Origin: an uncultured delta proteobacterium
GTDB taxonomy: Bacteria; Desulfobacterota; Binatia; UBA9968
Assembly: GCA_963745035.1 (NCBI GenBank)
Contig: CAVUVW010000019.1
Coordinates: 192,001-256,000 of the forward strand
DNA: 64,000 bases
Reading direction: 5' to 3'
Each line of letters opens with the position of its first letter. The stretch's first letter is position 1. The translations under genes were made by a program, and so were the position numbers. This document shows positions 39,981-56,279 of this stretch, in pieces. The notes beneath the pieces were generated by a model, which was given only the letters and a program-made list of their open reading frames with translations, did no database searches and was not told the DNA's origin.

Positions 39981-41180
39981 TTACTGCGATGTCCTCGATG
40001 ATGGGGCAGCCACGACAGGAGGCGGGAAACTGAACTCTTCCTCGATCGAGTTGTCGATCCCATAGCGCAGCAGTTCTTTCACGTCGAATTTCGTTTCATC
40101 TTCCTCGACCTCATCGAAGCGCGCCTTGGTAGCCGGGTGTTTCGGCACGAAGAGCTGGCAGCAGTCCTGATCGGGAATCGACGATATCTCGAACGTGCCG
40201 ATGCGGCGGGCTTGATCGATGATTTCCTGCTTGTCCATGCCGACCAGCGGACGCAGAATCGGCAGGCGCGCCGCCTGTTGGATCACCGCCATGTTGTCGA
40301 GCGTCTGTGATGCTACTTGACCCAGGCTTTCGCCGGTGACGAGAGCTTTGGCTTTCTCTTTGCGCGCGATCGCTTCGGCGATGCGCAGCATCATTCTGCG
40401 ATAGAGCACGACGCGCAGCGGCCGGGCGACGGCGGCGACGATCTGGCGCTGGATCTCGCCGAAAGGCACGAGATAGAGCCGCGAGGCGAATTGATGCCGG
40501 GTCAGCACGCTCAGCAATTGGCGGACTTTTTCCTGGGAAGTCTTGTCTTGAAACGGCGCGCTGTGAAAATGGACAAAGATCAGCCGGCAGCCGCGCTGCA
40601 TCATGCGGTACGCCGCAACGGGTGAATCGATCCCTCCTGAGATAAGGGCCACGAGCCGTCCGCTGGCGCCGACCGGCAATCCGCCGGCGCCGGGAATTTT
40701 GTTGAAGCCGAAAAATGCGTCGCGCGGCAGGATTTCCACAGTTACTGTGAATGCGGCGTTTTCCAGATCGACTCGAGCCCCGGATTTCGCCTTGACCGCG
40801 GCGCCGAGCTGCCGATTGATTTCCGGTGAAGTCATGGGAAAGGTTTTGTCGCCGCTTTGAGTTTCGATGCGAAAGGATTCGAAACGCGCGCCGTTCAATG
40901 AATCCAAGATCCGGCTCTGCAGCGCGTCGATGTCGCGCTCGGTGCGCTCGACGATGGAGAAGTTCGCGACGCCGAATACCGTGCCCATGCGCTCGATGAG
41001 GGTCGCAAGCGGAACGTCATTTTTGAAAGTGAGCAGCAGGCGCGCCGGCAGGCTGCGAATGTCTTTCGCTCCGAGATCTTTGACCGCGGCGAGCAAATTT
41101 CGCTTGAGCAGCTCGGTGAAATAGGCGCGGTTGCCTTTCTTGAGGGCGATCTCATGATAGCGAATGAGCACCGAATCCAT
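39981..41180 (-). CDS. thiI: tRNA 4-thiouridine sulfurtransferase ThiI (short form, no rhodanese domain)
   Basis: EIALKKGNR, THUMP domain, PP-loop SGGIDSPVA, TGESLGQVASQT, DCC. Confidence 0.95.
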   Translation of the reverse strand: MDSVLIRYHEIALKKGNRAYFTELLKRNLLAAVKDLGAKDIRSLPARLLLTFKNDVPLATLIERMGTVFGVANFSIVERTERDIDALQSRILDSLNGARFESFRIETQSGDKTFPMTSPEINRQLGAAVKAKSGARVDLENAAFTVTVEILPRDAFFGFNKIPGAGGLPVGASGRLVALISGGIDSPVAAYRMMQRGCRLIFVHFHSAPFQDKTSQEKVRQLLSVLTRHQFASRLYLVPFGEIQRQIVAAVARPLRVVLYRRMMLRIAEAIARKEKAKALVTGESLGQVASQTLDNMAVIQQAARLPILRPLVGMDKQEIIDQARRIGTFEISSIPDQDCCQLFVPKHPATKARFDEVEEDETKFDVKELLRYGIDNSIEEEFSFPPPVVAAPSSRTSQ

Positions 41181-41267
41181 GCGTCACTGATAACAGATCC
41201 ACTGTGCTTTTGCATGTAACTACCCCTATGGTACTATCCCCTCAAGACTGCCCGCGGGGAGCTATCC

Positions 41268-41594
41268 ATGAGCAACTTCAAAAAGATTTCGGACGCCATG
41301 CAATTTTCCTCTGAAAAGATGAAAAAAAATGGCGTCTTCGAAACCGACAGATTCTTCTGCGACACCTATTGTTTCGAGCCGGGACAGGAGCAAAGCCCGC
41401 ACACCCACGGCGGGGAGGACAAGGTCTATTACGTTCTCGAAGGCAAAGGGCTGTTCACGGTCGGAGACGAGCAGCGCGAGCTTGGACCGGGAGAGATCGT
41501 GCTCGCGCCCGCCGGCCAAAACCACGGCGTCGCCAACCGCAGCCAGCAAAAGCTCGTGACTCTGGTATTTGTCACGCCCAAGCCGCACCATTAG
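41268..41594 (+). CDS. Cupin domain protein
   Basis: PGQEQSPHTH...YYVLEG, PAGQNHGV. Confidence 0.9.
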   Translation: MSNFKKISDAMQFSSEKMKKNGVFETDRFFCDTYCFEPGQEQSPHTHGGEDKVYYVLEGKGLFTVGDEQRELGPGEIVLAPAGQNHGVANRSQQKLVTLVFVTPKPHH

Positions 41595-41598
41595 CGCC

Positions 41599-42025
41599 AT
41601 GACTTCGGAAGAAAAAGACGTCGCGCAAGCCAACGAAAGCTTCTATCGCGCTTTCGAAAGTCTCGACATCAAGCGCATGGAGTCGGTATGGGCCAACGAC
41701 CGCGAGATCCAGTGCGGTCATCCGGGTTGGAGCATTCTGCGCGGGTGGCAGCCGGTGATGGAGAGCTGGCGGCAGATTTTTGACAACACGCCGAAAATTC
41801 ATTTCATGCTGACCGACTTGACCATCGAAGTGCGCGGCGACCATCGCCTGGGTGACGCTTTACGAAAATCTCAACAGCTCACTGGAAGGACAAAATCTCG
41901 CCGCGACCATTCTTACGACGAACATTTTCCGCAGAGGCGCCGACGGCTGGCGCATGATTCATCACCACGGCTCATCCGTCGCCCAAGCCGCGCCGCCGCA
42001 AGACGAGACGCCGACCGTACATTGA
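41599..42025 (+). CDS. SnoaL/NTF2-like protein (frameshift near 41843)
   Basis: ANESFYRAFE, CGHPGW...GW...SW, WRMIHHHGS. Confidence 0.85.
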
Positions 42026-42050
42026 TCTCGCGTTTTTCTTGGTCTCACCC

Positions 42051-42772
42051 ATGAAAAGCCTGGAAGGCAAGGTTGCGCTGGTCACCGGCGCTGGGCGAGG
42101 CATCGGAAAAGCCATCGCGCTGTTGCTTGCTAAAAGCGGCTGCCGCGTGATCCTGGCTGCCCGCACCACGGCTCAACTCGAAGAAGTAAGAAAAGAAATC
42201 GAGCACGGCGGAGGCGCTGCGCAAGTAGTCGAAGCAGACCTCGCGCGCGATGAAGATATCGAGAGTCTTACCGCGGAAGGCCGGCGCGCCTACGGTAGCG
42301 TCGATATTCTGATCAATAACGCAGGCTGGGGCCGGCGCGCGCCGGTTGAACGATTGAAGGTGGAGGATTTGGATCAGACACTGCGGGTGAATTTGCGCGC
42401 GCCCATGCTGCTGGCGAAGTATCTCGTGCCCGGCATGATCGAAAAAGGCGAGGGGGCGGTCATCAATATCGGTTCCGTATCCGGCAAGAGCGGCGAAGCC
42501 AACGGGGCAGCTTACTCAGCGTCGAAGTTCGGTTTGATCGGATTCACACAGTCGCTCTACGAAGAGGTGCGCGAGCACGACATCAAAGTCGCCGTGATCT
42601 TGCCGGGCTTCGTCGACACACCGATGATTCCGCCGGTCAAGCACTTGGATCGCAGCAAGATGATTCAAGCCGACGATGTTGCTCAAGCGGTTCTACTACG
42701 TCCTGACTTCGCCGGCCACGTGCTTGTCCGGTGGAAATCACGATCCGACCGCAGAGAACGCCGTATCGGTAG
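42051..42772 (+). CDS. SDR family oxidoreductase (C-terminal frameshifts)
   Basis: TGAGRGIG, NNAG, YSASK. Confidence 0.9.
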
Positions 42773-42781
42773 ACATGAGGA

Positions 42782-42869
42782 CTCACCGCAGAGGCGCAGA
42801 GGTCGCGGAGTCGGAGTATTCTTTCCAAAAAAATCTTTATCTCGGCGTGCTTGGCGGCTCTGCGGTGAG
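42782..42869. repeat. CACCGCAGAG...CTCTGCGGTG element, copy 2
   Basis: ctcaccgcagaggcgcagagg ... ggctctgcggtgag. Confidence 0.8.
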
Positions 42870-42930
42870 AGTATCCTGTTCGGCTGTCGGTTGGGCTCTA
42901 CTGCGCTGGTTGTGGAGATAGCGTGATTCG

Positions 42931-43611
42931 TCAGGTGCACATCTTCTGCAGCAGCGGGAGCGTGACTTCCTCCAGACTTTCGACGACGACGTCGGCTTCG
43001 CCAAGCAGGTCCGCCGGATGAGAATTCGTCACGGCCAAGCACTTCATGCCGGCGCGGCGCGCGCCGCGGACGCCTTCCTTCGAATCTTCGATCACGACGC
43101 AGTCGGCAGACTCGATGGGTGAGTTCTTTTGCGGAGCATTGAGCGCGGCGAGAGCCTTCAAGAAAATCTCCGGCTCGGGCTTACCGCGCGTTACGTCTTC
43201 GGCACTCACGATGGCGTCGAAATGATCGAGCAATCCGGCTGTCTGTAGAATCGTCTCGATTTCCTGTCGCAATGCGCCGGAAGCGACAGCCAGCGGTAGG
43301 ATTCCATCAAGCGAAGCGACCAGGTTTTTCACGCCGGGAAAAATCGCCACCTGCTCGCGGATTGCGTCCTGGTAGTAGGCCGCCTTGCGCTCGATCAGTC
43401 GATGAAGCTTGGTATCATCCAACGGCCGTCCGTTCTCGCGAAAGCCGGCTGTGAAGGCGCCGCGATCGTCGAATCCCAGGTAGCGGGCGTAGTAAGCTTC
43501 TTCGGTAAGAACGATTCCTTCTTCGCCGAGAACTTTTTGAAAAAGTCGAAAGTGGATCGGCTCGTCGTCGACGATGATGCCGTTGAAGTCAAAAATGACC
43601 GCTCTTAGCAT
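42931..43611 (-). CDS. HAD family phosphatase
   Basis: IFDFNG, VASG, KPEPEIF, VIEDS. Confidence 0.9.
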   Translation of the reverse strand: MLRAVIFDFNGIIVDDEPIHFRLFQKVLGEEGIVLTEEAYYARYLGFDDRGAFTAGFRENGRPLDDTKLHRLIERKAAYYQDAIREQVAIFPGVKNLVASLDGILPLAVASGALRQEIETILQTAGLLDHFDAIVSAEDVTRGKPEPEIFLKALAALNAPQKNSPIESADCVVIEDSKEGVRGARRAGMKCLAVTNSHPADLLGEADVVVESLEEVTLPLLQKMCT

Positions 43612-43670
43612 GATTGACGATCGCAGAATTCCTCTTTTGTTTCAACTGAATATCGGCTAGAAGGGAAAGT

Positions 43671-44222
43671 ATGGCATCAGACCACGATCAACATCATGCC
43701 GCGCATCATCACGGCCATATCGAGTACCGCTTCTGTCCGCGGTGCGGCGGCAACTTGGATCGCCGCATCGTCAAGGCGAACGAGCCCAAGCGGCTGGTTT
43801 GCCAGGCCTGCTCCTTCATCTTCTATCAAGATCCAAAGGTCGTTGCCGGAACCGTTTTTACGCTCGACGGCGGCATTCCGCTCTTGAAGCGTGGCGTCGA
43901 GCCCGCCCTTGGCAAATGGGTATTTCCGGGCGGCTATGTCGATCGAGGAGAGAGCGTGCGCGATGCCGCTGTTCGTGAGACGAAGGAAGAATGTCAACTG
44001 GACGTTAAATTGTGTTCTCTGCTGAACGTCTACTCTTATCCGCGTTCACCCAACGTCATCGTCGTCTATGCCGCGGAAGTAATCGGCGGCGAGCTTGCAG
44101 CCGCGGATGAATGCGCGGAAGCGCGCATCTTCCTGCCGGGGGAAATACCCTGGGATGATCTTGCCTTCGACAGCACCCGGGATGCGCTCAAGGACTACAT
44201 CGGCTCTTATCTAAAATCCTAG
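43671..44222 (+). CDS. Zinc-ribbon NUDIX hydrolase
   Basis: FCPRCG...CQAC, GGYVDRGESVRDAAVRETKEE. Confidence 0.9.
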   Translation: MASDHDQHHAAHHHGHIEYRFCPRCGGNLDRRIVKANEPKRLVCQACSFIFYQDPKVVAGTVFTLDGGIPLLKRGVEPALGKWVFPGGYVDRGESVRDAAVRETKEECQLDVKLCSLLNVYSYPRSPNVIVVYAAEVIGGELAAADECAEARIFLPGEIPWDDLAFDSTRDALKDYIGSYLKS

Positions 44223-44230
44223 TGGACTCC

Positions 44231-44265
44231 GGAGTGATGGAGTAACGGAGTATTGGAGTGATGGG
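44231..44265. repeat. GGAGTAAT-family half element
   Basis: ggagtgatggagtaacggagtattggagtgatggg. Confidence 0.85.
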
Positions 44266-44272
44266 CTTAAAT

Positions 44273-44308
44273 AAAAAACGCCCATCGCCTCGGCGAAGAC
44301 GATGGGCA
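44273..44308 (-). terminator. Probable intrinsic terminator of the Rieske gene
   Basis: aaaaaacGCCCATCGcctcggcgaagaCGATGGGC: hairpin followed by a U-tract on the minus strand. Confidence 0.55.
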
Positions 44309-44329
44309 AGGTCGTATCAACTGTAGGTG

Positions 44330-44639
44330 CTAGGAGAGATCTACTAGCACGTCATCTTCTTCGATTTTCACGTCGTACTTCTGAGTCGGCAGGCTGGGCA
44401 ACAATTCGTTCTCGCCAGTGGTTACATTGTAGCGCCACCCATGCCACGGGCAGATCACGGTCGTGCCGTCCAGCTCGCCTTCACCCAGAGGGCCGCCACG
44501 ATGGCCGCAGACATCGTTGATTGCGTAGAATTTGCCGTCGACGTTGAAGACGCCGACGGCTTTGCCGTCGATTTCGATGCTCTTGCCGCAGCCGGTCTTT
44601 GACTTCTCCCGTTTTGCAGACTTTGACGAAATTCGCCAT
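44330..44639 (-). CDS. Rieske [2Fe-2S] ferredoxin (absent from ORF track; extra base near 44600)
   Basis: Hand translation MANFVKVCKTGEVKTGCGKSIEIDGKAVGVFNVDGKFYAINDVCGHRGGPLGEG...VICPWHGWRY; CxH/CxxH ligands. Confidence 0.9.
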
Positions 44640-44701
44640 TCTAATTTCCTTTCATAATCGCGGTGTAAAGTTCCGGGTAATATACGAATTGAAGTCGGGA
44701 T

Positions 44702-45791
44702 TCAAGAGGAACGCACAAACGGCAACGCGGCCACCGTCGCGCGCAATTTCGACGGCTCGCTGCGAATCGCGACTTCGGTTCCCGGCATCCAAAAGTCCTT
44801 GTGCAGATATCCGAGCGCGATGGGGCAGTCAAGTCGCGGCGAAAATACTGAACTGGTGACGCTGCCGACGGATTTTCCCTCGGCCTCGATGACGCTGCCG
44901 GCGCGGACAGCCGCGTCGCCGGCGATCAACAGACCGAAGAGTTTCTTGTTTACGTGGCCGCGCGAACGGATGCGCTCGACCACTTCCTGGCCGAGATAGC
45001 ATCCTTTGGTGAAGCTTACGGCTTGTTCGAGGCCGACTTCGAGAAGCAGGTGGTCTTCGGTAAAATCGACGCCGTAACGCGGAATGCCGGCTTCGACGCG
45101 CAGAATATCTTGGGCGTCTGCACCGACCCAGCGCGCCGAAAATGGTTTTGCAGCATCGGCCAAACTCTGTGCGATCTTTTTCACGTCGGCTTTCGGAATG
45201 ATCAGATCAAATCCCGGCTCGCCGGTATGGCTGGAAGCGACCACGCAGATCGCGGCGCCGTCGAGGGAGGCCATGACATGGCCCAGGGCATGCTGCGGTA
45301 ACGCCGTTTCGCCGAAGGCGGCGCGGAGCACCGCGCCGGACTGCGGGCCTTGAAGCGAGACGGTCGAATATTCATCGGAACGGTCAGCGATCTCGACTTC
45401 GTCGGCGATCAGGTAGCGATTAAGGTGAGCGAGAATCTTCTCTTTCAAGCTCTCCCAGAAATCCAGATAAAATGAATTCATCGCGCACAGCACGCGCACG
45501 TCGGCGATCAACTTTGCCTTGCTGCGTGAGCAGAGTCGCCTCCTGGCCATCGAAGGGCTTTAGGGTCCGGAGATCGTTGGACAGCATGCCTTGAAGAAAC
45601 GACAAGCGATCGGGGCCGGTAAACTGCAGCAAGCCACGGTGCGAAAAATCGATCAAACCCACAGCCGCGCGCACCGCCTCGTATTCGCGCGCCGGGTCGC
45701 CGAAGTGCTTTGGCAAGCGCCAGCCATCCTGTTCGACGAAGACGGCGCCGTTGGCGCGATGCGATTCAGACAATAAAGATTGTTTCGCCAC
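44702..45791 (-). CDS. YgfZ/GcvT-family folate-binding protein (frameshift near 45515)
   Basis: GPDRLSFLQGMLSND, RVEAGIP, KGCYLGQEVVERI. Confidence 0.9.
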
Positions 45792-45922
45792 TTTCGAGAA
45801 ATATAGCCGCTCAACGCCACGATGACAACGCGGGGGAGAGGAAGCGGACATGGGCGATCTGTTTGATCGTTCGCTCGCCGCTGTGATAGAGAAATAACCG
45901 TACAAAATTTATGGAGGTGGCC

Positions 45923-46391
45923 ATGGCAAATTTGGAAGGGCAGAGGGCTCCAAACTTTACACTGGAAGGGAGCGACGGCAAAAAACACTCGCTCAGCGAC
46001 TATGCCGGCAAGAACGTTATACTTTGGTTCTATCCGAAGGATGACACTCCCGGCTGAACCAAGGAAGCGTGCGGGTTCCGCGACGCTATCGACTCGGTTA
46101 CCAAAGCAAATACTATCGTCGTCGGCGTGAGCCGAGACAGCATCGATTCCCACAATCAGTTTGTCGCCAAATTCAATCTGCCTTTCGTGCTTCTCTCCGA
46201 TCCGCAAGTCGGCACGATGAAGGCTTATGGCGCTTGGGGCCCGCGCCAAAACGCTCAAGGCGAGACGGTCGAAGGGCCGATTCGCTCGACCGCTTTGATC
46301 GGACCCGATGGAACCGTCAAGAAACACTGGATTCCGGTGGCGCAACGCGGAAGCCCATCCGGCCGAAGTCTTGGAGTATTTGCAGAAGTAG
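45923..46391 (+). CDS. bcp: Putative selenocysteine-containing BCP/PrxQ peroxiredoxin (TGA at 46055-46057 = Sec; frameshift near 46340)
   Basis: ggagg RBS, ATG 45923; reads FYPKDDTPG[TGA]TKEACGFRD, colinear with paralog [19 protein letters not shown] at 50059. Confidence 0.85.
46066..46087 (+). promoter_or_regulatory. Putative bacterial SECIS hairpin
   Basis: AGCGUGCGG-GUU-CCGC(G)ACGCU; loop starts with G, 17 nt after the UGA; absent from the Cys paralog. Confidence 0.7.
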
Positions 46392-46497
46392 ATTTTCCGC
46401 CGCGCGGGAGCGGCCGACGGTCTTTTAGGCCGCCGCTCTCCCGCGCGATCGCTCTGTCCTTCCTGCCCGCGCCGGGACACCGGCAGCGATTTGTGCC

Positions 46498-47411
46498 ATG
46501 AGCAAAGTCAAAGCCGATCTCGATCTTCGCAAGCTCGAAATTTTTTACTGGGTTGCCGAGCTCAAAAGCTTTTCTCAAGCTGCCGAGCTTCTCTCGCTGC
46601 GCCAGCCGACCGTGAGCGCGCACGTGCAGGAATTGGAAGATGCGTCGGGCGGCAAGCTGTTCTATCGCATGCACGGCCGGGTGAGTTTGACGCCACTGGG
46701 CGAATTACTCGCGGAGCACGCTAAAATCCTGCTGGCTTTCAAGCGGAAAACGCGCGCCGCAGTCGAGCAGTTCCACGGCACCTTGAGCGGCGAGCTATGG
46801 GTCGGCGGCAGCAGCATTCCCGGAGAGTATTTGCTTCCCGCCAAAGCTCGGCGCGTTCACAAAAAAATATCCCGCGCGTCAAGCCGATTCTGCGCATTCG
46901 CGATTCCGCCGGGATCATCGAAGACGTGCTCGACGGCAAAGTCGAGCTGGGTTTTGTCGGGTCCAAGATCGCCGACGCGCGGCTCGCGTTCAAAAAACTA
47001 TGGAACGATGAGATGGTGCTCGCCGTGCCGAAGGCGCATCCTTGGAGCCGCCGCAAGTTCGTTCAAATCGCGGAGCTGCGCTCGCAAAAGTTTATTTCGC
47101 GAGAACCCGGCTCGGGCACCCTCGAATCCTTCAGCCACCTCCTGTCCAAAGGCCGGCGCTCGGTAGACAAGCTGTTGGACGTGTCGATGGAGTTGGGCAG
47201 CACGCAGGCGGTCATAGAAGCGCTGCGGGGCGGATTCGGAATATCGATCTTGTCGCGGATTTCGATCCAGCATGAGCTTGCGGAAGGAAGTCTAGTCGAA
47301 GTGCGCGTTCGAGGTTTGACGATGCGGCGCGATTTTTACGAAGTTTCGCATCGCCGCCGGCCGCTGCACCCGATCGCGCAAGCCTTTCGCGAATTCCTGA
47401 AACCTTCCTGA
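46498..47411 (+). CDS. LysR-family regulator, CysL/selenium-associated-like (frameshifts near 46840-46875)
   Basis: HTH SFSQAAELLSLRQPTVSAHVQELE; GGSSIPGEYLLP, REPGSGT, ELGSTQAV. Confidence 0.85.
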
Positions 47412-47459
47412 TCGTCGCACCCTCCACAAGCGTTCCAAACTTTTCGGGGAAACCCTCTT

Positions 47460-47498
47460 ACATAGGCATTGTCTATGTTGTATATAGATTTCTTCAAT
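47460..47498 (+). promoter_or_regulatory. Twin LysR boxes upstream of the sulfoxide synthase operon
   Basis: ACATAG-N7-CTATGT (T-N11-A) and ATAG-N7-CAAT, 22 bp apart. Confidence 0.65.
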
Positions 47499-47517
47499 CA
47501 AGCGTGGGGAGTTTTTT

Positions 47518-48877
47518 ATGGCGCTTCCATTACGACGCAAAATTCCCAGCAAGAGCGAAGACCACAGGGAAAAGCTCACGGCTGCGTGGGCGCGCACCGA
47601 TGAGATTTTCGCAACTGTCCCAAATGCGGAATCGAATACCAGCCCGATTGTTTGGCGGCATCCATTCATATTCTATATTGGACACTTGCCGGCATTTTCC
47701 TGGAATCAGATCGGTGCGGCGATTCTCAACTGGAAGTCATTCAATCCTTATTTCGACGATTTGTTTTGCCGCGGCATCGATCCCGACGTCGATACCGGTG
47801 AATGTCATTGGCATCCGGAGGTTCCGGAAGAATGGCCAACTTTGGCCGATACGCTGGAGTACAGAGATCAGGTACGTGCCGCGTTGCTGGAATCTTTCGA
47901 GGCGGTGGCCCGTTCAAGCTCATCGGATGTCATGGCGCAGCAGGGACGGGTTTTTCAGATGGTTTTGGAGCATGAGTTCATGCACCAGGAAACGCTGCTG
48001 TACATGCTGCAGCAGTTGCCGCCGGAGAAAAAGCGCCACCCGGACGGCTTTTCCCGCTACTTTTTTCAGCGCGCTGCCGGCGGGGCACGAAGTTTTGATC
48101 CCCGCGGGCCGGGCGCGCCTGGGCGCAAAATTCGACGAGACGCTTTTCGGTTGGGACAACGAGTTCGAGGAGATACTCGTCGACGTGCCAGCGTTCACGA
48201 TCGATTCGCTGCCCGTCACCAACGGTGAATTCTTCGAGTTCGTCGCAAGTGGCGGCTACGAAAACCAAATCTACTGGCAAGCGGAGGATTGGCGCTGGAA
48301 GAACCTGGAGATGAAATCTTGTCCGACGCTTTGGCTGAAACGTGATCGGGCTTGGTTTTATCGCGCGATGTTCGATACTCTGCCGCTCGCCGAGGTCGCA
48401 AGTTGGCCGGTTTACGTGAGTCTTGCGGAAGCGCGGGCCTATGCGAGCTGGGCCGGCAAGCGGCTGCCGACGGAAGCTGAATTCCATCGCGCGGCCTATT
48501 ACGGACCGGACGCCCGCGAGACGGACTACCCGTGGGGCAATACACCGCCGACGGCCCAGCACGGCAATTTCGATTTCGTCTCGTGGTCACCGCTGCCGGT
48601 GGGGTCGCGACCCGCGGGCTCGAGCCGCTGGGGCGTTATGGAACTGGCCGGCAACGGCTGGGAGCTCACGGATACGCCGTTTGCGCCGTTTCCGCGCTTT
48701 ACTCCGTATATGGCGAGCTATCCGGACTACTCGCGCGACTTCTTCGACGGCAAACACTTTGTCTTGAAGGGCGCGTCCTGGGGCACCGCTGCGGACCTGC
48801 TGCGGCCGAGTTTTCGCAACTGGTATCAGGCCCACTATCCCTACGTGTTCGCGAAGTTTCGCTGCGCCCGCAATTAA
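47518..48877 (+). CDS. EgtB/Egt1-like non-heme iron sulfoxide synthase (DinB + FGE-sulfatase domains; frameshift near 48060)
   Basis: RHPFIFYIGH, RGIDPDVD...CHWH, iron motif HEFMH-QETLLY, RLPTEAE, GNGWE, YSRDFFDGKH, SFRNWYQ. Confidence 0.8.
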
Positions 48878-48889
48878 GGAGACCGCGCC

Positions 48890-49171
48890 ATGAAAGCGAT
48901 CTGGGAAAATACCGTCTTGGCCGAATCCGATCACACCGTCGTTGTCGAGGGTAATCAGTACTTTCCGCCGGCGTCCATCAAACGGGAGTATTTCACCGCG
49001 AGCGATACCCATTCTACCTGTCATTGGAAAGGCGTCGCGAGCTACTATGACGTCAAGGTGGGCGACAAGACCAACGCCGACGCCGCCTGGTATTATCCGG
49101 AGCCGAAGGAAGCCGCCAAATCGATTAAAGATCATATCGCCTTCTGGCGCGGCGTGACCGTGACCGAATAA
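48890..49171 (+). CDS. DUF427 (NTP_transf_9) protein
   Basis: LAESD...VEGNQYFPP, CHWKGVASYY, AAWYYPEP. Confidence 0.9.
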   Translation: MKAIWENTVLAESDHTVVVEGNQYFPPASIKREYFTASDTHSTCHWKGVASYYDVKVGDKTNADAAWYYPEPKEAAKSIKDHIAFWRGVTVTE

Positions 49172-49192
49172 CTCGCAGCGTCGACGTACCCC

Positions 49193-49985
49193 TTGAAACT
49201 TGCATCTTGCATGGCGGAAAACAGCGAAGGCTTCTGCCGCGCGGTCGCTAGTTTTATCGAAAATCGTATTCGGATTCCCACGCAGTATGTCACAGGCATC
49301 CCATGGCAGGAGCGCGAAAGCCTTTTTGATGGCGGCGAAATTCACATCTTGTGGCTCTGCGGGCTGCCCTACGTGGAAAAGGCGGACATGGCTCAAAACA
49401 AATTGGAATTGCTCGCCGTGCCGACTCCGTGCGGAGAACGCTATCAAGACCGGCCCGTTTATTTTTCCGATGTTGTCGTTAGGCGTGATCGTCCATTTCA
49501 AACTTTCTTCGATCTCCGTGGCGCGTCCTGGGCCTACAACGAGCCGCGCTCCCATTCCGGATTCAATGCCGTGCGAGCCTATCTTGCCGGATTCGGTGAG
49601 CGCGATAACTTTTTCGGCGCGGTCGTCGAATCGGGCGCGCATCACGCGTCGCTCGAGATGGTCTTGTCCGGCCAAATCGATGGCGCAGCGATCGACAGCA
49701 CGGTGCTCGAATGGCTCGTGACCGAGCGCGCCGGGCTCGGCGGAGGAAATTCGCGTGATCGACACTATCGGGCCGAGTCCGATGCCGCCCTGGGTGATAT
49801 CACGCCAGGTTCCGGCAAAGTTGCGCGACGACATCCGCACTTTGCTGTTGGGCATGCACACGGAGCCGTTCGGCAGAGTTATGCTTGCTCGCGCGCGGCT
49901 TGACCGCTTTGTTGAGGCGGCGGACCGGGACTACGATCCGATTCGAGTCATGGCGCGGAAGGCTGAACAAGTTTCATTGGCGTAG
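49193..49985 (+). CDS. PhnD-like substrate-binding-fold protein without signal peptide (frameshift near 49745)
   Basis: WLCGLPYV, PVYFSDVVV, AYNEPRSHSG, SGAHHASL, AAIDS, GPSPMPP. Confidence 0.8.
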
Positions 49986-50058
49986 CCATTCATGTTACAG
50001 CACGTATTTTCAGGCGCCGTGACAGCTCCGCAAATATTGACAAGGGGGATCATTGAGA

Positions 50059-50526
50059 ATGGCAAACTTGGAAGGGAAGAAGGCGCCGTCCTTTAGCCTC
50101 GATGGTAACGACGGCAAGACGCATGCGCTTGATGACTACAAAGGCAAGACCGTCGTGCTTTATTTTTATCCCAAGGACGACACGCCGGGCTGTACGAAAG
50201 AGGCGTGCGGTTTTCGGGAGCAAAGCTCGGCATTGAAAAAGTCCGACGTGGTGGTGCTCGGAGTCAGTAAAGACAGCGTCGAGTCGCATAACCGGTTCGC
50301 CGGAAAATATAAGCTGCCGTTTACGCTTCTTTCGGATCCCAAAGCCGACGTGATGAAGAAATACGGCGCGTTCGGCAAAAAAATGATGTATGGCAAGGAA
50401 GTGCAAGGAACCATCCGTTCGACCGTCGTGATCGGCCCCAAAGGCGACGTCCTCAAACACTGGTCCACCGTAAAAAAGGCCGAGGCTCATCCGGACGAAG
50501 TGCTGGCGTTTTTGAAGGCCCGGTAA
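50059..50526 (+). CDS. bcp: BCP/PrxQ peroxiredoxin, Cys form
   Basis: [30 protein letters not shown]. Confidence 0.95.
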   Translation: MANLEGKKAPSFSLDGNDGKTHALDDYKGKTVVLYFYPKDDTPGCTKEACGFREQSSALKKSDVVVLGVSKDSVESHNRFAGKYKLPFTLLSDPKADVMKKYGAFGKKMMYGKEVQGTIRSTVVIGPKGDVLKHWSTVKKAEAHPDEVLAFLKAR

Positions 50527-50632
50527 TCGTTCGAACGCGATTCGTTTTGGCAGTTGGTTTGGTTGACAAAGAGTGACCAAGAGCTATATTTGCCCTCATC
50601 GAAAATAGCTATTCGGTCAAGAGGGAGGTTCT

Positions 50633-51727
50633 ATGAACCGGCGGGATTTCATCAAAGGTGGACTGACCGTGTCGGCGGGATTGGCTCTCGGCGGCATTCC
50701 GAAGTTCAGAGATCTGGCGTTCGCAAACGAAGCCAAATGGCGCACGTTTGAAGTAACGACCCGGCTCGAGGTGACGGATCCAGTTGGCGCGGTGCGCGCC
50801 TGGGTGCCGGTACCGCTCACTTCCAACACCGACTATTTCAAACGTGAACCGGACAGTTGGACGGGCAATTATAAATCGGTGAAGGCGGTGCAGTATGATA
50901 AGTACGGCACCGGCATGGTTTTCTCCGAATGGGCGCCGGGCGAGAAGGCGCCCGTTGTTGAAGTCAAGAGCCGCTTCATGACGCGCGATCGCGCAGTGGA
51001 TTTGAGCCGAAAACCGGCTGCGGCGCCGAGCGAAAATAAGGCGGTGCTCGACTACTTTAAGAAACCATCGAAGCTGATTAAAACCGACGGCATTGTTGCG
51101 ACGACATCGAAGGGCATCGTGATGGGTTACAAAACCGATGTCGATAAAGCGCAGGCGATCTACGAGTGGATCGTCGATAACACCTTCCGCGATCCGAAGG
51201 TGAAGGGATGCGGTATCGGCGATATTTCGACGATGCTCCACACCGGTTATCTCGGCGGCAAGTGCGCCGACCTGAATGCCTTATACGTCGGACTGGCTCG
51301 CGCCGCCGGACTGCCGGCGCGGGACGTATACGGCGTGCGAGTGGCGGCCTCCGATGAATTTAAGAGTCTGGGCAAGGCTGACGACATCAGCGGTGCGCAA
51401 CACTGCCGCGCCGAAGTCTGGCTCAACGGGTTCGGCTGGGTGCCGGTCGATCCCGCGGATGTGAGAAAGGTTGTGCTGGAGGAGAACCTGCCAGGAGCGC
51501 CGCTTCCGCTCGACGATCCGAAAGTGAAAAAAGCTCGCGGCAAACTGTTCGGCGCCTGGGAGATGAATTGGCTGCCGTACAATTACGCTCACGACATTAA
51601 GCTGCCGAACTCGAACGGGCCGGAGATCGGCTATTTCATGTACCCGCAATCCGAGACCGCTAACGGCCGGAAAGACAGTCTCGATCCGAAAAGCTTTAGT
51701 TACACAATCAAGTCAAAAGAAGTTTAG
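50633..51727 (+). CDS. Tat-exported transglutaminase-like protein
   Basis: MNRRDFIKG Tat motif; GGKCADLN, HCRAE, WVPVDPAD triad. Confidence 0.9.
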   Translation: MNRRDFIKGGLTVSAGLALGGIPKFRDLAFANEAKWRTFEVTTRLEVTDPVGAVRAWVPVPLTSNTDYFKREPDSWTGNYKSVKAVQYDKYGTGMVFSEWAPGEKAPVVEVKSRFMTRDRAVDLSRKPAAAPSENKAVLDYFKKPSKLIKTDGIVATTSKGIVMGYKTDVDKAQAIYEWIVDNTFRDPKVKGCGIGDISTMLHTGYLGGKCADLNALYVGLARAAGLPARDVYGVRVAASDEFKSLGKADDISGAQHCRAEVWLNGFGWVPVDPADVRKVVLEENLPGAPLPLDDPKVKKARGKLFGAWEMNWLPYNYAHDIKLPNSNGPEIGYFMYPQSETANGRKDSLDPKSFSYTIKSKEV

Positions 51728-51753
51728 AGCAAGAACTTAACAGCTTGTGTTTA

Positions 51754-51788
51754 CGAGGCCTCCACATTTTGTGGGGGCCTCGCTGTTT
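51754..51788 (+). terminator. Probable terminator hairpin
   Basis: cgaggcctccac-atttt-gtgggggcctcg followed by ctgttt. Confidence 0.55.
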
Positions 51789-51968
51789 GTGGGGCAAGGG
51801 AATAGAATCATGAGTGTGCACAAACCCCTTGGGATTCTTGCAGAAGGCGAGTCTTTTCAAGCGTATTTGTTCCACTGTAGATGCCTGACATCGCGGCATC
51901 GGTTCAAAGATACTGGCGTACATACCGTCTTCGAACGTTAGCGACGAAGAATGCCGCTTTTGCATTTA

Positions 51969-52003
51969 ACCCCTCTTTGAAAAGGAGGGGTTAGAGGACA
52001 TTT
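51969..52003. repeat. CCCCTCTTTGAAAA-GAGGGG half element
   Basis: Matches the right hairpin of the 38178-38271 element. Confidence 0.7.
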
Positions 52004-52061: not shown

Positions 52062-52921
52062 TTATCTTGCCAGCGCCTCTTGAATCGCGCGCGCTAGATA
52101 AACCTCGGTCAAATGCTTGCGGTACTCCGCGGAGCCATTGATGTCTTCGATGACCTCGATGTTGCGCGTGGACTCCGCGACCGCGTCTTCGATGGTTTTG
52201 GCGTCGAGTTTTTTGCCCGTCAGCATCTGTTCGACTCGATCGGCGCGATAGGCTTTGTCGGTGACTCCGGTGATGCCGATGGCGGCGCGGCTGCAGTCGC
52301 CGGACGCATCCAAGCCAATTCTCACTGCTGCGCCGACAACAGCAAATCCGGATGAGCGCGGCGCGGCCTTCAAGTAGGCGGTCTTGTCATTTCCGGTCAC
52401 CGGTACTTTGATCGCAGTGACGAGCTCGTCGGGCTCGAGCACGCTCATCAAAAGCCCGAGAAAAAAATCGTCGCACTTCACCCAGCGCTCGCCGTTGGGC
52501 CCGAAGCATTTAATCTCGGCATCCAGCGCCAGGATCGCGGCCGGCCAGTCGCCCGCCGGATCGGCGTGGGCGATGCTGCCGCCGATGGTGCCGCGATTGC
52601 GCACCTGCACGTCGGCGATGGTGGTCGCCGTCTGCGGCAGCAGGGGACATTTCTTTTGCAGCAGGTCTGAGGATTCGATTTGCGCGTGGGTGACCAGCGC
52701 GCCAATGATTAGATGTTGCCGTTTTCTTCGCTGATCGTGTCCAACCCGGGAACGCGGCCTATATCTACGATAAAGCCGGGCTTCGATAGACGCATCTTCA
52801 TGAGGGGCAGCAAGCTTTGGCCGCCGGAGAGAACTTTGACGTCATCTCTGTGCGCGGCGAGATATTCGACCGCGTCGTCAAGCGAGCGCGGCGCGTAATA
52901 CTCGAAAGAACCGGGAATCAT
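52062..52921 (-). CDS. CoxM-family FAD subunit (frameshift near 52710)
   Basis: LSGGQSLLPLMKMRL, QVRNRGTIGGSIAHADPAGD, GSAEYRKHL. Confidence 0.9.
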
Positions 52922-52923
52922 TT

Positions 52924-55360
52924 TTAGTAAGACCTCCGCTCGGTCTCGGGATTATTATTCGCCAAACGCCATACCGCTTCGGGCGTCAGTGGAAGGTCGC
53001 AGACTTTGACGCCGAAGGGTTGCAGCGCATCTTCGACCGCGCTGGCGATGGCAGCGGGCGAGGGGATAGCGGCGCCTTCGCCGGCGGCTTTTTGGCCGAG
53101 CACCGTATAGGGCGAGGGCGAAGGTTGATGTACCACTTCGACGCGCGGCGTTTCTGCCGTCGAGCATTTGCCGTAATCGAGATACGTGATCGTCAGGGGC
53201 TGTCCTTCGGCGCTGTACATGAAGCCCTCGCCTAAGGCGATCGCGATGCCGTGCGCGGCGGAGCCATAGACTTGGCCGTTGACTACATCCGGGTTGATCA
53301 CGGTGCCGTTATCGCCGACGATGAGATAGCGTAGGACATGGACTATCCCGGTGGCCTTGTCGACTTCGACGACGGCGGCGTGGGCGCCGGCGGAAAAGGT
53401 AAACTGCGCCCGCACTAACCGATCGGGGCCTGGAACGATATTCGGTTTGGCGTGGGGAAACATGTAGTAGAACGTCGACTCCAGTCCCGCTTCCATGTCG
53501 TCGGGGATGAGATGCTGATTGTTGTAAGCGATGCGGCCCAGTTCGGCGAAGGTGATCTGCTTTGCCGTCGCGCCGGGCACCTTTACGACGCTGTCTTCGA
53601 TGGTTAACGTCGGACGGCTCAACTTTGAGATTGAAGGCTGCGAGCTTGAGAATTTTTTCGCGCAGCCGGGTGGCGGCGCCGTGGATGGCGCCGATGTCGT
53701 AGAGATGAAAATTATTGCCGCTGTTCGCCGCGGCGACGCCCCACGCTGACAAGTCGCTATCGAAAGGAATGCTGGTGCTAATCTTGTCCGGCGTCGAGCC
53801 GAGAATCTCCGCCGCCACTTGAGCCGTCGTCGTCTCGTGAGCTTGGCCGCAATTGGGCGATCCGAGATGAAGCGACAGGCTGCCGTTCTTTTCCAGCTTG
53901 ATCTTTGCGCCGTTGACGCCGCCGGAGCCGGGCGGTTCTTTCATCTCCGGGAAGATCGCCATGTCGCGCGCCGCGTTGCGCCCGCCGGGCTCGACGCCGA
54001 TGACGATACCGATGCCCATGAGCTTGCCGTTGGCGCGCGCCTGCTTTTGCTCTTCGCGCACTTTGTCGTAGTCGATTTTCTCCAGCAGCGTCGACAGCAA
54101 CCGAGGATAGTCGCCGCTATCGTAAACGTTGCCGCTGATCGTGCGGTAGGGCATTTCGCTTGGCTGAATCAGATTTTTGCGCCGCACCTCGATAGCGCTC
54201 AGCTTCAACTCCTGAGCGACCCGGTCCATCATGCGCTCCCAGATGTAGCACATGCCTGGCTTGCCGATGCCGCGGTTCGGGATGACCGGGCATTTATTCG
54301 TCACCACCGCATTGCCGATCATATGGATAGCCGGCGTGCGATAAGTATTCGAAAGATTGTTGAGCTTGTTGGTGAAGTGGATCGTCAAGGTGCTGATCGA
54401 GCCGCCGACGTCGTCGTATTCATTGAAGCGCAGGCCGAGGACAGTGCCGTCGTTTTTGACCGCCGCCTCGCATTCGAACTCCTGGGCGCAGGCGTGTCCG
54501 CCGGCCATCATGTGTTCGCTCCGGTCCTCGATCCATTTGACCGGCCGCCCGCTCTTCATCGCCAGCAAGGAAACCAGCACGACGTATTTGCGAATGAGAT
54601 GAATCTTCTGGCCGAAGCCGCCGCCGACGTCGGGAATGATCACGCGGATATCCTGCAGGCCGAGCGCTTCGCGCAGGCCGTCATAAATCACTTCGGGTAC
54701 CTGCGCGGTCACCCAAACGGTCAAGCGTTTGCTCGCTGCGTCGTAGGAAGCGATGACAACGAAGGGCTCGAGCGGCGTCGAGCTGTAGCGGTGAATCTTG
54801 AGATTTTCTTTGACGACCCGGTCGGCGGATTTGAACGCTGCGTCGATGTCGCCGTATTGCAGCGAGCCGGTCCACGCCAGGTTCGTGCCCAATTCGTCGA
54901 ATAGCGTCGCCGATGACGGTTTGATCGCTTCGCGAACGTCGACGACTGCGCGCAGCGGTTCGTAGTCGACTTGAATCAATTCGAGTGCGTCTTCGGCGGT
55001 ACCCCGGTCGCGCGCAGCAACCGCGCCGATGGGCTCGCCGACGTAGCGCACTTTCTCAATGGCGCCGGCGTACTCATCGATGGGCCGCTTCAAGCCGGCG
55101 GCATAGCGGCCGGGCTTGAACGGTTTGGTGAGCTGCTTGACGTCGGTCGGCGTGATCACCGCCATGACGTTCGGATTCTTGAGCGCCTCGGAAGGATCGA
55201 CCGCGTTGATCTTCGCGTGCGCGTGCGGGCTCCGCACGATCATCGCCTGAAGCATGCCCTGGCAAGGGTGAAGTCGTCGGTGTAAAGACCGCGGCCGGTG
55301 ACGTGACGCGGACCTTCCTTGCTGCGGACTGCGCGCGCCGATGAATTTTTTCTCAGCCAT
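52924..55360 (-). CDS. CoxL/xanthine dehydrogenase-family molybdoprotein (frameshifts)
   Basis: VRSPHAHA, DVGGGFGQK, PNRGIGKP, YDSGDY, GQAHETT, GQKAAGEG. Confidence 0.9.
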
Positions 55361-55377
55361 AAATGATACCTTACGAA

Positions 55378-55523
55378 GAAATTCGAAATTCGAATATCGA
55401 AATCCGAAACAAAAGAAAGAAATCAAAACCAAATTACAAATCATTCGAAAACGGTGCCAGTTTGGAACTTTTGAAATTTCTTGAGCATTCGAATTTGTTT
55501 CGGATTTCGAATTTCGAGCTTCG
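55378..55523. repeat. TTCGAAA heptamer inverted element inside a molybdoenzyme operon
   Basis: aattcgaaattcgaatatcgaaatccgaaac ... gtttcggatttcgaatttcgagcttcg. Confidence 0.85.
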
Positions 55524-56006
55524 GTTCTTATCTTCCGCGGCTTTTTGCTTCTCCGCCGCTTCTTTCACCGCTTCAACGATCTGCACATAGCCCGTGCACA
55601 TGCAGAGATTGCCGGCGAGCGCCTTGCGGATTTCCGGCTCGGACGGATCGGGATTGTTTGCAAGCAGCGCGTGACTGGTCATCACCATGCCCGGCGTGCA
55701 GTAGCCGCATTGAAACGCGTAGTTCTTGACGAACGCTTGCTGAATCGGGCTTAGCTCGCCGTCCTTGGCGAGGCCCTCAATCGTAGTGATTTCGCGGCCG
55801 TCCGCCTGCACGGCGAAATGAAGACACGACTTCACGACTTTGCCGTCGAGGAGCACGGAGCAGGCGCCGCACTCGCCGACGACGCAGCCGACGTGGGTAC
55901 CGGTAAGCCCGATGGCTTCGCGCAGAAAATGCGCGAGCAGAATGCGCGGCTCGACGTCTTCTTGATAGAGCCGGCCGTTGATGGTGACCTGGATCGTTTG
56001 TTTCAT
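55434..56006 (-). CDS. CoxS-family (2Fe-2S) subunit
   Basis: GCVVGECGAC, QCGYCTPG, GNLCMCTGY; tail reads into the repeat. Confidence 0.9.
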   Translation of the reverse strand: MKQTIQVTINGRLYQEDVEPRILLAHFLREAIGLTGTHVGCVVGECGACSVLLDGKVVKSCLHFAVQADGREITTIEGLAKDGELSPIQQAFVKNYAFQCGYCTPGMVMTSHALLANNPDPSEPEIRKALAGNLCMCTGYVQIVEAVKEAAEKQKAAEDKNRSSKFEIRNKFECSRNFKSSKLAPFSNDL

Positions 56007-56279
56007 GAAAAGCAACCATAACGGTTGCATGAAAATGGGTCAAGCAAGTGCGCCCGGTCAGGGCTGACGGATCATTTTGGTGCTTTGATGAGTGAAGCCG
56101 TTCGACTACAAACCGTTTGAACTATTTGAACGCGTAAATCGGCTTCGCGCGCCTCTCGATTTTGGAAAATATGCAATTCGTGAAAGAAATGCGAAAAACC
56201 ATGTAGTATACTCATGCTAGTTGGAGTGGAGAGGGTTAAAAATGTTTCAATCCGATTGTTGAAAGTCGGGAGAATCGCA

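Follow-up and report, generated by a model that had tools for sequence, protein, structure and literature searches.

A lysR locus pairing selenocysteine and cysteine peroxiredoxins with an Egt1-type synthase in an uncultured Binatia bacterium: a candidate selenium-limitation operon

The locus analysed here lies in a 64,000-nucleotide stretch of DNA (the window) from an uncultured delta proteobacterium (Desulfobacterota; Binatia; UBA9968), taken from contig CAVUVW010000019.1 (positions 192,001 to 256,000, forward strand) of assembly GCA_963745035.1. To our knowledge, this lineage does not have any cultured member. A first-pass annotation had described six co-oriented genes bracketed by two BCP peroxiredoxins (Prx), one with TGA and one with TGT at the peroxidatic codon, and all six were confirmed between positions 45923 and 50526. 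They encode, on the plus strand, a predicted selenocysteine (Sec) peroxiredoxin of the BCP/PrxQ type (Prx1, 45923..46391; 155 aa after discounting an extra base at about 46341), a LysR regulator of the selenium-associated family NF040786 (LysR_Se/HrsM type, 46498..47411), a stand-alone non-heme iron sulfoxide synthase with DinB_2 and FGE domains (47518..48877), a DUF427 protein (48890..49171), a signal-less PhnD-fold oxyanion-binding protein (49193..49985) and a cysteine (Cys) BCP/PrxQ peroxiredoxin (Prx2, 50059..50526, with TGT at 50191-50193). A predicted operator, CATAG-N7-CTAT-N7-ATAG-N7-CAAT (47461..47498, plus strand), with two T-N11-A sites located 22 bp apart, separates lysR from the synthase gene. 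Prx1 is placed upstream of lysR and outside the boxed unit.

Four of the six window genes are frameshifted in the present assembly: Prx1 by the extra base mentioned above, lysR and the PhnD-like gene by two insertions each, and the synthase gene by an insertion at 48077. Independent short-read contigs, from a comparison covering four of the 24 listed runs, contained one base fewer at 46341, 46841/43, 46871/74, 48077, 49610 and 49738, and the same six genes are intact in a relative (G021), evidencing that the frameshifts are assembly errors; a pseudogene reading of these genes was ruled out by the short-read contigs. Given the frameshifted window copies, protein-level tests were made on intact orthologs. 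Two independent DNA contigs (records 17 and 25) show the same TGA in Prx1. The sequencing runs containing DNA of the locus were mostly labelled as soil, rhizosphere or winery metagenomes, and contigs of one RNA run (X15) covered parts of the locus, although such contigs are not a measure of expression.

Prx1 is an AhpC-TSA/BCP peroxiredoxin, and its in-frame TGA (Sec45, 46055-46057) occupies the peroxidatic position of a PxxxTxxU motif (PKDDTPG-U) and aligns to the Cys of homologs. The genome encodes selA, selB, a TGA-containing (Sec-type) selD and tRNA-Sec, each above its cut-off; selA, selB and selD form a cluster (G000:C17:315264-319742, L006), followed by glycogen genes, and tRNA-Sec is found on the same contig (C17:371273-371363). 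A hairpin resembling a selenocysteine insertion sequence (SECIS) is present in Prx1 (46067..46086, plus strand), with a GUU loop 17 nt past the UGA; it was invariant in 20 of 20 TGA genes, synonymous sites included, and broken or changed in four of four Cys genes. Its position right after the UGA and the G at the start of a loop of 3-9 nt agree with what is described for bacterial SECIS elements in PMC13188914, the available text of which also lists Sec-Prx as a known prokaryotic selenoprotein family. The folding energy of the hairpin is unremarkable (z -1.5), its support being conservation and not energy, and covariation was not detected in the alignment, the columns of which are invariant. 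Because selA, selB, selC and selD are present in the genome and a SECIS-like hairpin follows the codon, the Prx1 TGA is, on sequence grounds, a genuine Sec codon. The selD product also contains Sec, and a hairpin likewise follows the UGA of its gene.

The intact LysR orthologs that were scanned (7/7) passed the NF040786 (LysR_Sec_metab) cut-off with 260-279 bits (> 250), whereas the window copy, split by the assembly errors, gave 102.8 and 137.6 bits for its halves and did not pass on its own. According to the available text of PMC5322559, LysR_Se, a family proposed from gene neighbourhoods, is equated with archaeal HrsM. HrsM is described as repressing Cys isogenes when selenium (Se) is sufficient, and in Methanococcus maripaludis transporters rise on Se depletion (PMC11097638). 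The link to selenium and the analogy with HrsM drawn in the first-pass annotation were supported by this family assignment, by the full Sec machinery of the genome, by the conserved gene order and by the occurrence of the box before a putative selenate importer in relatives (see below). A further LysR fragment is encoded at G000:C13:80870-81445; it matches positions 2-195 of NF040786 with 149.5 bits and could be a second, frameshifted member of the family.

The region following lysR contains a conserved box, CATAG-N7-CTAT..GT..ATAG, invariant in 16 of 16 aligned post-lysR spacers. Twin LysR boxes had been reported at this place: the box itself is real and conserved, but only the first one is perfectly palindromic; in the second, the right half varies and reads CAAT here. 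The exact 26-nt pattern was found at 49 sites in 43 of 90 genomes of the family versus 16 for a reversed control, and 42 of these sites are located right after lysR or before a transporter, six elsewhere and one at a contig end. Gene order is conserved in relatives, as the first-pass proposal presupposed. Among 73 genomes, the first gene after lysR encodes the synthase (28), a Cys-Prx (20), an ATP-binding cassette (ABC) transporter of the TIGR04553 family (15), an ArsP_1 permease (2) or an unrelated protein (1), and is unresolved in seven; these counts were obtained from match coordinates plus the loci read and, the genomes being related, are not phylogenetically independent. Four of four scanned transporters located behind lysR in relatives passed the TIGR04553 cut-off (331-346 > 250). 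In two genomes (G015 and G077) the box occurs twice, preceding both the Prx/synthase module and the transporter, which suggests that the module may have been inserted into an older lysR-box-transporter locus. The synthase and the transporter occur together in 10 of 90 genomes versus 19 expected by independence, a difference that is suggestive only, as the genomes are kin and incomplete. The half-sites enclose TTGACA in front of the transporter, the permease and the G081 Cys-Prx, and such a perfect -35 element inside the operator would fit a repressor site. The ArsP_1 (PF03773) permease stands directly behind lysR in G105 (L116:2099-3142, boxed with TTGACA) and G102 (L245:1348-2391) and is a second candidate selenium importer.

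Within the host genome, a search allowing one mismatch detected only the window site and one overlapping the start of a transglutaminase gene, which is control level (2 vs 4), and at this stringency the sel, sen and egtD genes were not preceded by a box. Four additional box-like sites (ATAGAAT..CTAT..CATAG) were found in G017 (twice), G020 and G025 (L118:2152, L119:1936, G017:C540:12712 and G017:C656:3437); the two that were read lie between a GGDEF-like gene and one for a TctC-like binding protein, and they probably represent the site of another regulator. A metagenome scan for ATAG-N7-CTATTTGACA returned at least 119 stretches, with the full pattern in one among the matches listed, and was uninformative.

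The Sec or Cys state of the peroxiredoxins follows their position relative to lysR. The Prx gene directly upstream of lysR contains the in-frame TGA in 29 of 29 genomes, a count that leaves out G003 (the match misses codon 45), G026 (other contig) and G027 (no lysR), while TGA was found in none of the 20 genes located directly downstream, all of which encode Cys (19 by comparison; G081 read). Even the Prx1 type itself is Sec when upstream and Cys when downstream of lysR (G067 and six genomes of genus g27). As the genomes are related, this rule represents a pattern and not a statistic.

The class of the synthase was examined on an intact ortholog of 452 aa (P0004), which scored below the cut-offs for SenA (NF041186, 220<420), EgtB-I/EgtB-II (TIGR03440, 221<360) and OvoA (TIGR04344, 257<400). 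Using the 17-residue class motifs of PMC11030361, the positions of which were mapped onto P0004 in the present analysis, the relevant residues are R47, H48, Y53 and H56; D88-x; H152, M155 and H156; Y401 and Y404; N434, W435 and Y436; and Y440. The window copy has the same residues (RHYH--DxHMHYYNWYY). This motif differs from those of EgtB-I/EgtB-II (xSDH..RR or xSHHYYRR), does not fit SenA (xNEH--HRHxHYYN(F/Y)(F/Y)R) or the ovoselenol synthase OvsA (xNEH--HRHxHYMQAYR), and has Asn-Trp at the histidine site, in contrast with the (Y/F)-Ala of OvoA; the methyltransferase domain of OvoA is missing as well. On the other hand, P0004 matches all the defined positions of the EgtB-IV motif (RxYH--DxHxHYxNWFx) save one Phe-to-Tyr change, and is identical to Neurospora tetrasperma Egt1 (P0242) at every defined position, supporting the "Egt1-like" label given at first. 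The enzyme stands alone, not fused to the EgtD methyltransferase. Pairwise scores leave Egt1 (177 bits, BLAST) and EgtB-IV (199 bits, phmmer) unseparated. The top structural match of the predicted fold is EgtB-IV (TM-score about 0.8), the best solved structures being about 29% identical; the AlphaFold model, of moderate quality (pLDDT 71.5, with low values for the active-site loops), served for the fold only.

Longer relatives of the synthase, examined as the best 120 of 220, are mostly EgtD fusions, with 40-45% identity for protist and metagenomic proteins and 30-39% for fungal Egt1. A homolog with 42% identity in Ca. Baltobacteraceae stands head-to-head with an EgtD-like open reading frame (read by eye), and at E<=1e-80 the synthase was found in none of 250 other genomes of the phylum sample. 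Several protist and metagenomic proteins (P0124-P0136) combine this synthase type with EgtD and often also with a pyridoxal phosphate (PLP) aminotransferase domain (PF00155); they represent possible single-chain ergothioneine pathways and resemble the Binatia enzyme more than fungal Egt1 does. Based on motifs and fusion partners, the synthase is predicted to be an Egt1-type enzyme using Cys and hercynine. The proposal that it makes a new seleno-histidine was not sustained, since the motif is instead that of a Cys/hercynine enzyme, and judged by its residues it is not a new selenium enzyme. The parts of the locus all belong to known families and new chemistry is unlikely. The available text of PMC11030361 terms type III (Egt1) "of fungal origin", and the uncharacterized motif classes in the supplements of PMC11030361 and PMC13674229 may already include the synthase clade.

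As the first-pass annotation stated, egtD, senB and selD are absent from the window; all of them are encoded elsewhere in the genome. The independence from canonical egt and sen clusters that had been read into this absence was not supported, as a canonical senB-senA pair (G000:C19:44576-46934, L053) and a stand-alone egtD (C19:51816-52715) are located at 44.5-52.7 kb of the same contig, about 190 kb from the window. The genome SenA has the full SenA motif and scores 490.8 (>420), SenB scores 404 (>300), and the window synthase is only 31% identical to this SenA. EgtC and EgtE were not found over cut-off in the genome search. An OpuBA/OpuBB-like ABC transporter adjoins egtD (read by eye), a possible transporter of ergothioneine/selenoneine or betaine. 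Among the 90 family genomes, SenB was detected in 80, selA in 77, EgtD in 77 and the synthase in 48; thus SenB is near-core and the synthase accessory in the family. The synthase is most likely, judging from this distribution and its motif, the ergothioneine (sulfur) partner of a near-core selenoneine pathway. The annotation had named three signs that would speak against its proposal: part of the third, a plain Cys-using ergothioneine enzyme with egtD elsewhere, is what the motifs predict, whereas the genome does have Sec machinery and the gene order is conserved.

DUF427 proteins and putative selenate transporters are known neighbours of such synthases (5.7% and 3.1%, respectively; PMC13674229). 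The window PhnD-like protein falls outside TIGR04553 (65.7<250 bits), is devoid of a signal peptide and is not accompanied by ABC genes in the locus; a search of the ESM Atlas returned PhnD-family clusters only, and the gene is accessory, being absent from several loci. Its closest solved relatives are AioX/ArrX (WLCGLPY vs WICGYPF). In AioX the shared Cys binds arsenite. The available portion of PMC10820871 did not confirm this role.

Other features were observed at and around the locus. The gap between Prx1 and lysR contains a stable GC-rich stem-loop (46399..46448, plus strand; z -2.86) without a U tail, which could uncouple or stabilise transcripts, and an Rfam scan of window positions 44000-52000 gave no matches. 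Upstream, a YgfZ/GcvT-type folate-binding gene (44702-45905, minus strand), frameshifted here, is divergent from the locus in nearly all the relatives read, frequently with a Rieske-like ferredoxin gene after it; thiI, cupin, SnoaL, short-chain dehydrogenase, HAD and Nudix genes occupy 39981-44222. Downstream, a TAT-exported transglutaminase-like protein (50633-51727, plus strand) comes after the locus in many relatives and has its own strong sigma-70-like promoter (50563-50590, 11/12), and a CoxL/M/S-type molybdenum hydroxylase cluster lies at 52062-56030.

Based on this evidence, the locus is probably a selenium-limitation operon, repressed under Se-replete conditions and released under shortage, with ergothioneine and Cys-Prx as outputs here and Se uptake in relatives; the binding, the direction of control, the effector and the enzyme product are predicted from the genes. 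According to this proposal, the selenium-family LysR would bind the ATAG-N7-CTAT box and repress the downstream genes while Se is plentiful, the selenium versions being encoded elsewhere or upstream, i.e., senA, senB and selD for selenoneine, and Sec-Prx1. When Se falls, the regulator would leave the box, the Egt1-type synthase would join cysteine to hercynine supplied by the shared EgtD, ergothioneine would be released with the help of a borrowed PLP C-S lyase, and Cys-Prx2 would take over from Sec-Prx1; the DUF427 and AioX-like proteins are accessory. A borrowed lyase is proposed because a dedicated EgtE or EgtC was not found, and C-S lyases are often borrowed (PMC13674229). In relatives, the lysR-box cassette is placed instead, or also, before a putative selenate ABC importer or an ArsP-type permease, so that scavenging and substitution may be two outputs of one switch. 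The complete scheme, in which one HrsM-type regulator with a definable operator governs the replacement of selenoneine by ergothioneine and of Sec-Prx by Cys-Prx, together with an importer (TIGR04553 ABC or ArsP-type) in sister lineages, is more tentative, and we rate its chances as slightly under even.

Several observations weigh against a selenium-limitation operon. In the window the box spacer reads GTTGTA, not TTGACA, and a sigma-70 promoter scan detected none at this box; the exact box is missing at the locus in genus g27 (0/8; G111 read), and genus g23 does not have any exact one (0/12; degenerate in G087); and in G027 Sec-Prx1 directly precedes the synthase with neither lysR nor box at the locus. 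A search of the window's genome did not detect the TIGR04553 transporter, and its NCBIfam label, "selenate transporter", is hypothetical. The accessible text of PMC11030361 argues against ergothioneine and selenoneine being interchangeable and regards them as a redox couple. Furthermore, 13 of 31 genomes have TGA (Sec) in the distal Prx2 gene (read at codon 45; G070 left out as ambiguous). The Sec/Cys isoform pair described at first is seen here and is partly general, but in 10 genomes Sec occurs in both proteins, and in three the arrangement is the opposite one. A Sec-Prx2 would fit a Cys back-up role only if the gene were expressed from a separate promoter; a -10-like TATG(A/C)T before three Sec-Prx2 genes, degenerate before Cys-Prx2 genes, gives a weak hint of such a promoter. 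Next-best LysR matches are YeiE-like families, which would agree with a regulator sensing sulfur or another oxyanion (YeiE/CysL-like) or oxidative stress, the genes then forming an ordinary ergothioneine and peroxiredoxin unit and the Sec link reflecting a Sec-rich lineage. With selA in so many genomes of the family co-occurrence says little, the substrate of the transporter is putative, the PhnD-like protein resembles arsenite-binding AioX/ArrX, and a frequent Sec-Prx2 would cause no difficulty. Nevertheless, we regard this alternative as unlikely: the orthologs pass the selenium-family cut-off and stay well below that of YeiE (167-178 vs 480), the Prx next to the box is Cys in all 20 cases and the upstream one Sec in all 29, and the alternative cargo behind the box is the one PhnD subfamily labelled as selenium-associated.

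The direction of control could also be the opposite, the regulator activating the operon when Se is present and the Egt1-type enzyme turning free Sec into selenoneine, as a second route or a detoxification sink; fungal Egt1 is capable of this conversion. Selenoneine is reported to be made via Egt1/Egt2 at high Sec (PMC10903977), Sec-Prx2 lies inside the operon in the 13 genomes mentioned, and the synthase of G027 directly follows Sec-Prx1; yet a dedicated SenA/SenB route is already near-core, induction of an importer by plenty is not expected, and repression by Se is indicated both by TTGACA in the operator and by a proximal Prx with Cys only, making activation improbable. More doubtful still is a pathway in which the synthase, DUF427 and the cytoplasmic AioX-like protein make a new thio- or seleno-imidazole (e.g., 2-thiohistidine or a modified form) and not ergothioneine. 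In favour of such a product, the motif does not exactly match any bacterial class in the available text of PMC11030361 (NWY for NWF), enzymes of the OvoA branch make 2-thiohistidine (PMC13674229), and a characterized close relative is lacking; against it, the motif agrees with Neurospora Egt1 and keeps the Asn-Trp hercynine pair, relatives are fused to or beside EgtD, the AioX-like gene is often missing and the locus does not contain a tailoring enzyme.

The regulatory part of the selenium-limitation operon is the main finding, as a variant of the HrsM-type switch. A literature search, most subscription papers being outside its scope, did not reveal, among the results listed, any account of this locus, an operator for a bacterial LysR_Se or work on selenium biology in Binatia. 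The locus makes testable what bacterial LysR_Se regulators bind and control, and also provides a bacterial Egt1-type enzyme that stands alone. According to the available text of PMC11097638, a specific selenium transporter is not known, and two candidate importers stand behind the same box as the Cys back-ups. With regard to the co-occurrence of ergothioneine and selenoneine genes (PMC11030361), the locus would predict substitution under Se shortage and not only a redox couple. If true, this would be the first operator for a bacterial LysR_Se, would pinpoint real selenium transporters and would represent an Se-to-S switch at the small-molecule level.

Altogether, the locus resembles several known systems and departs from each of them. 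As in Methanococcus, a regulator of the HrsM family is encoded with a Cys isoform downstream of a predicted repressor site, whereas here the system is bacterial, antioxidants and a small-molecule synthase take the place of hydrogenases as targets, the candidate operator is defined by conservation and the regulation is a prediction. Prx1 has the PxxxTxxU motif of Sec-containing peroxiredoxins, but its Sec/Cys state follows the position relative to lysR and the box. The synthase shares with fungal Egt1 and EgtB-IV the DinB+FGE fold, the 3-His triad, the catalytic Tyr, the R-x-Y..D thiol-site residues and the Asn-Trp hercynine pair, and with fungal Egt1 also the RGIDPDVD and NWYQxxYPY segments; it differs in being bacterial, in standing without an EgtD domain beneath a selenium-family regulator, and in its low identity to Neurospora Egt1 (30%) and EgtB-IV (28-29%). 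It belongs to the same superfamily as the enzymes of sen/ovs clusters, and the host genome has true SenA and SenB, but the window enzyme is devoid of the xNEH/H..R/final-R motif of SenA. Finally, the TIGR04553 putative selenate ABC transporter fills the lysR-box slot in relatives, while the window PhnD-like protein represents a different, signal-less AioX/ArrX-like subfamily.

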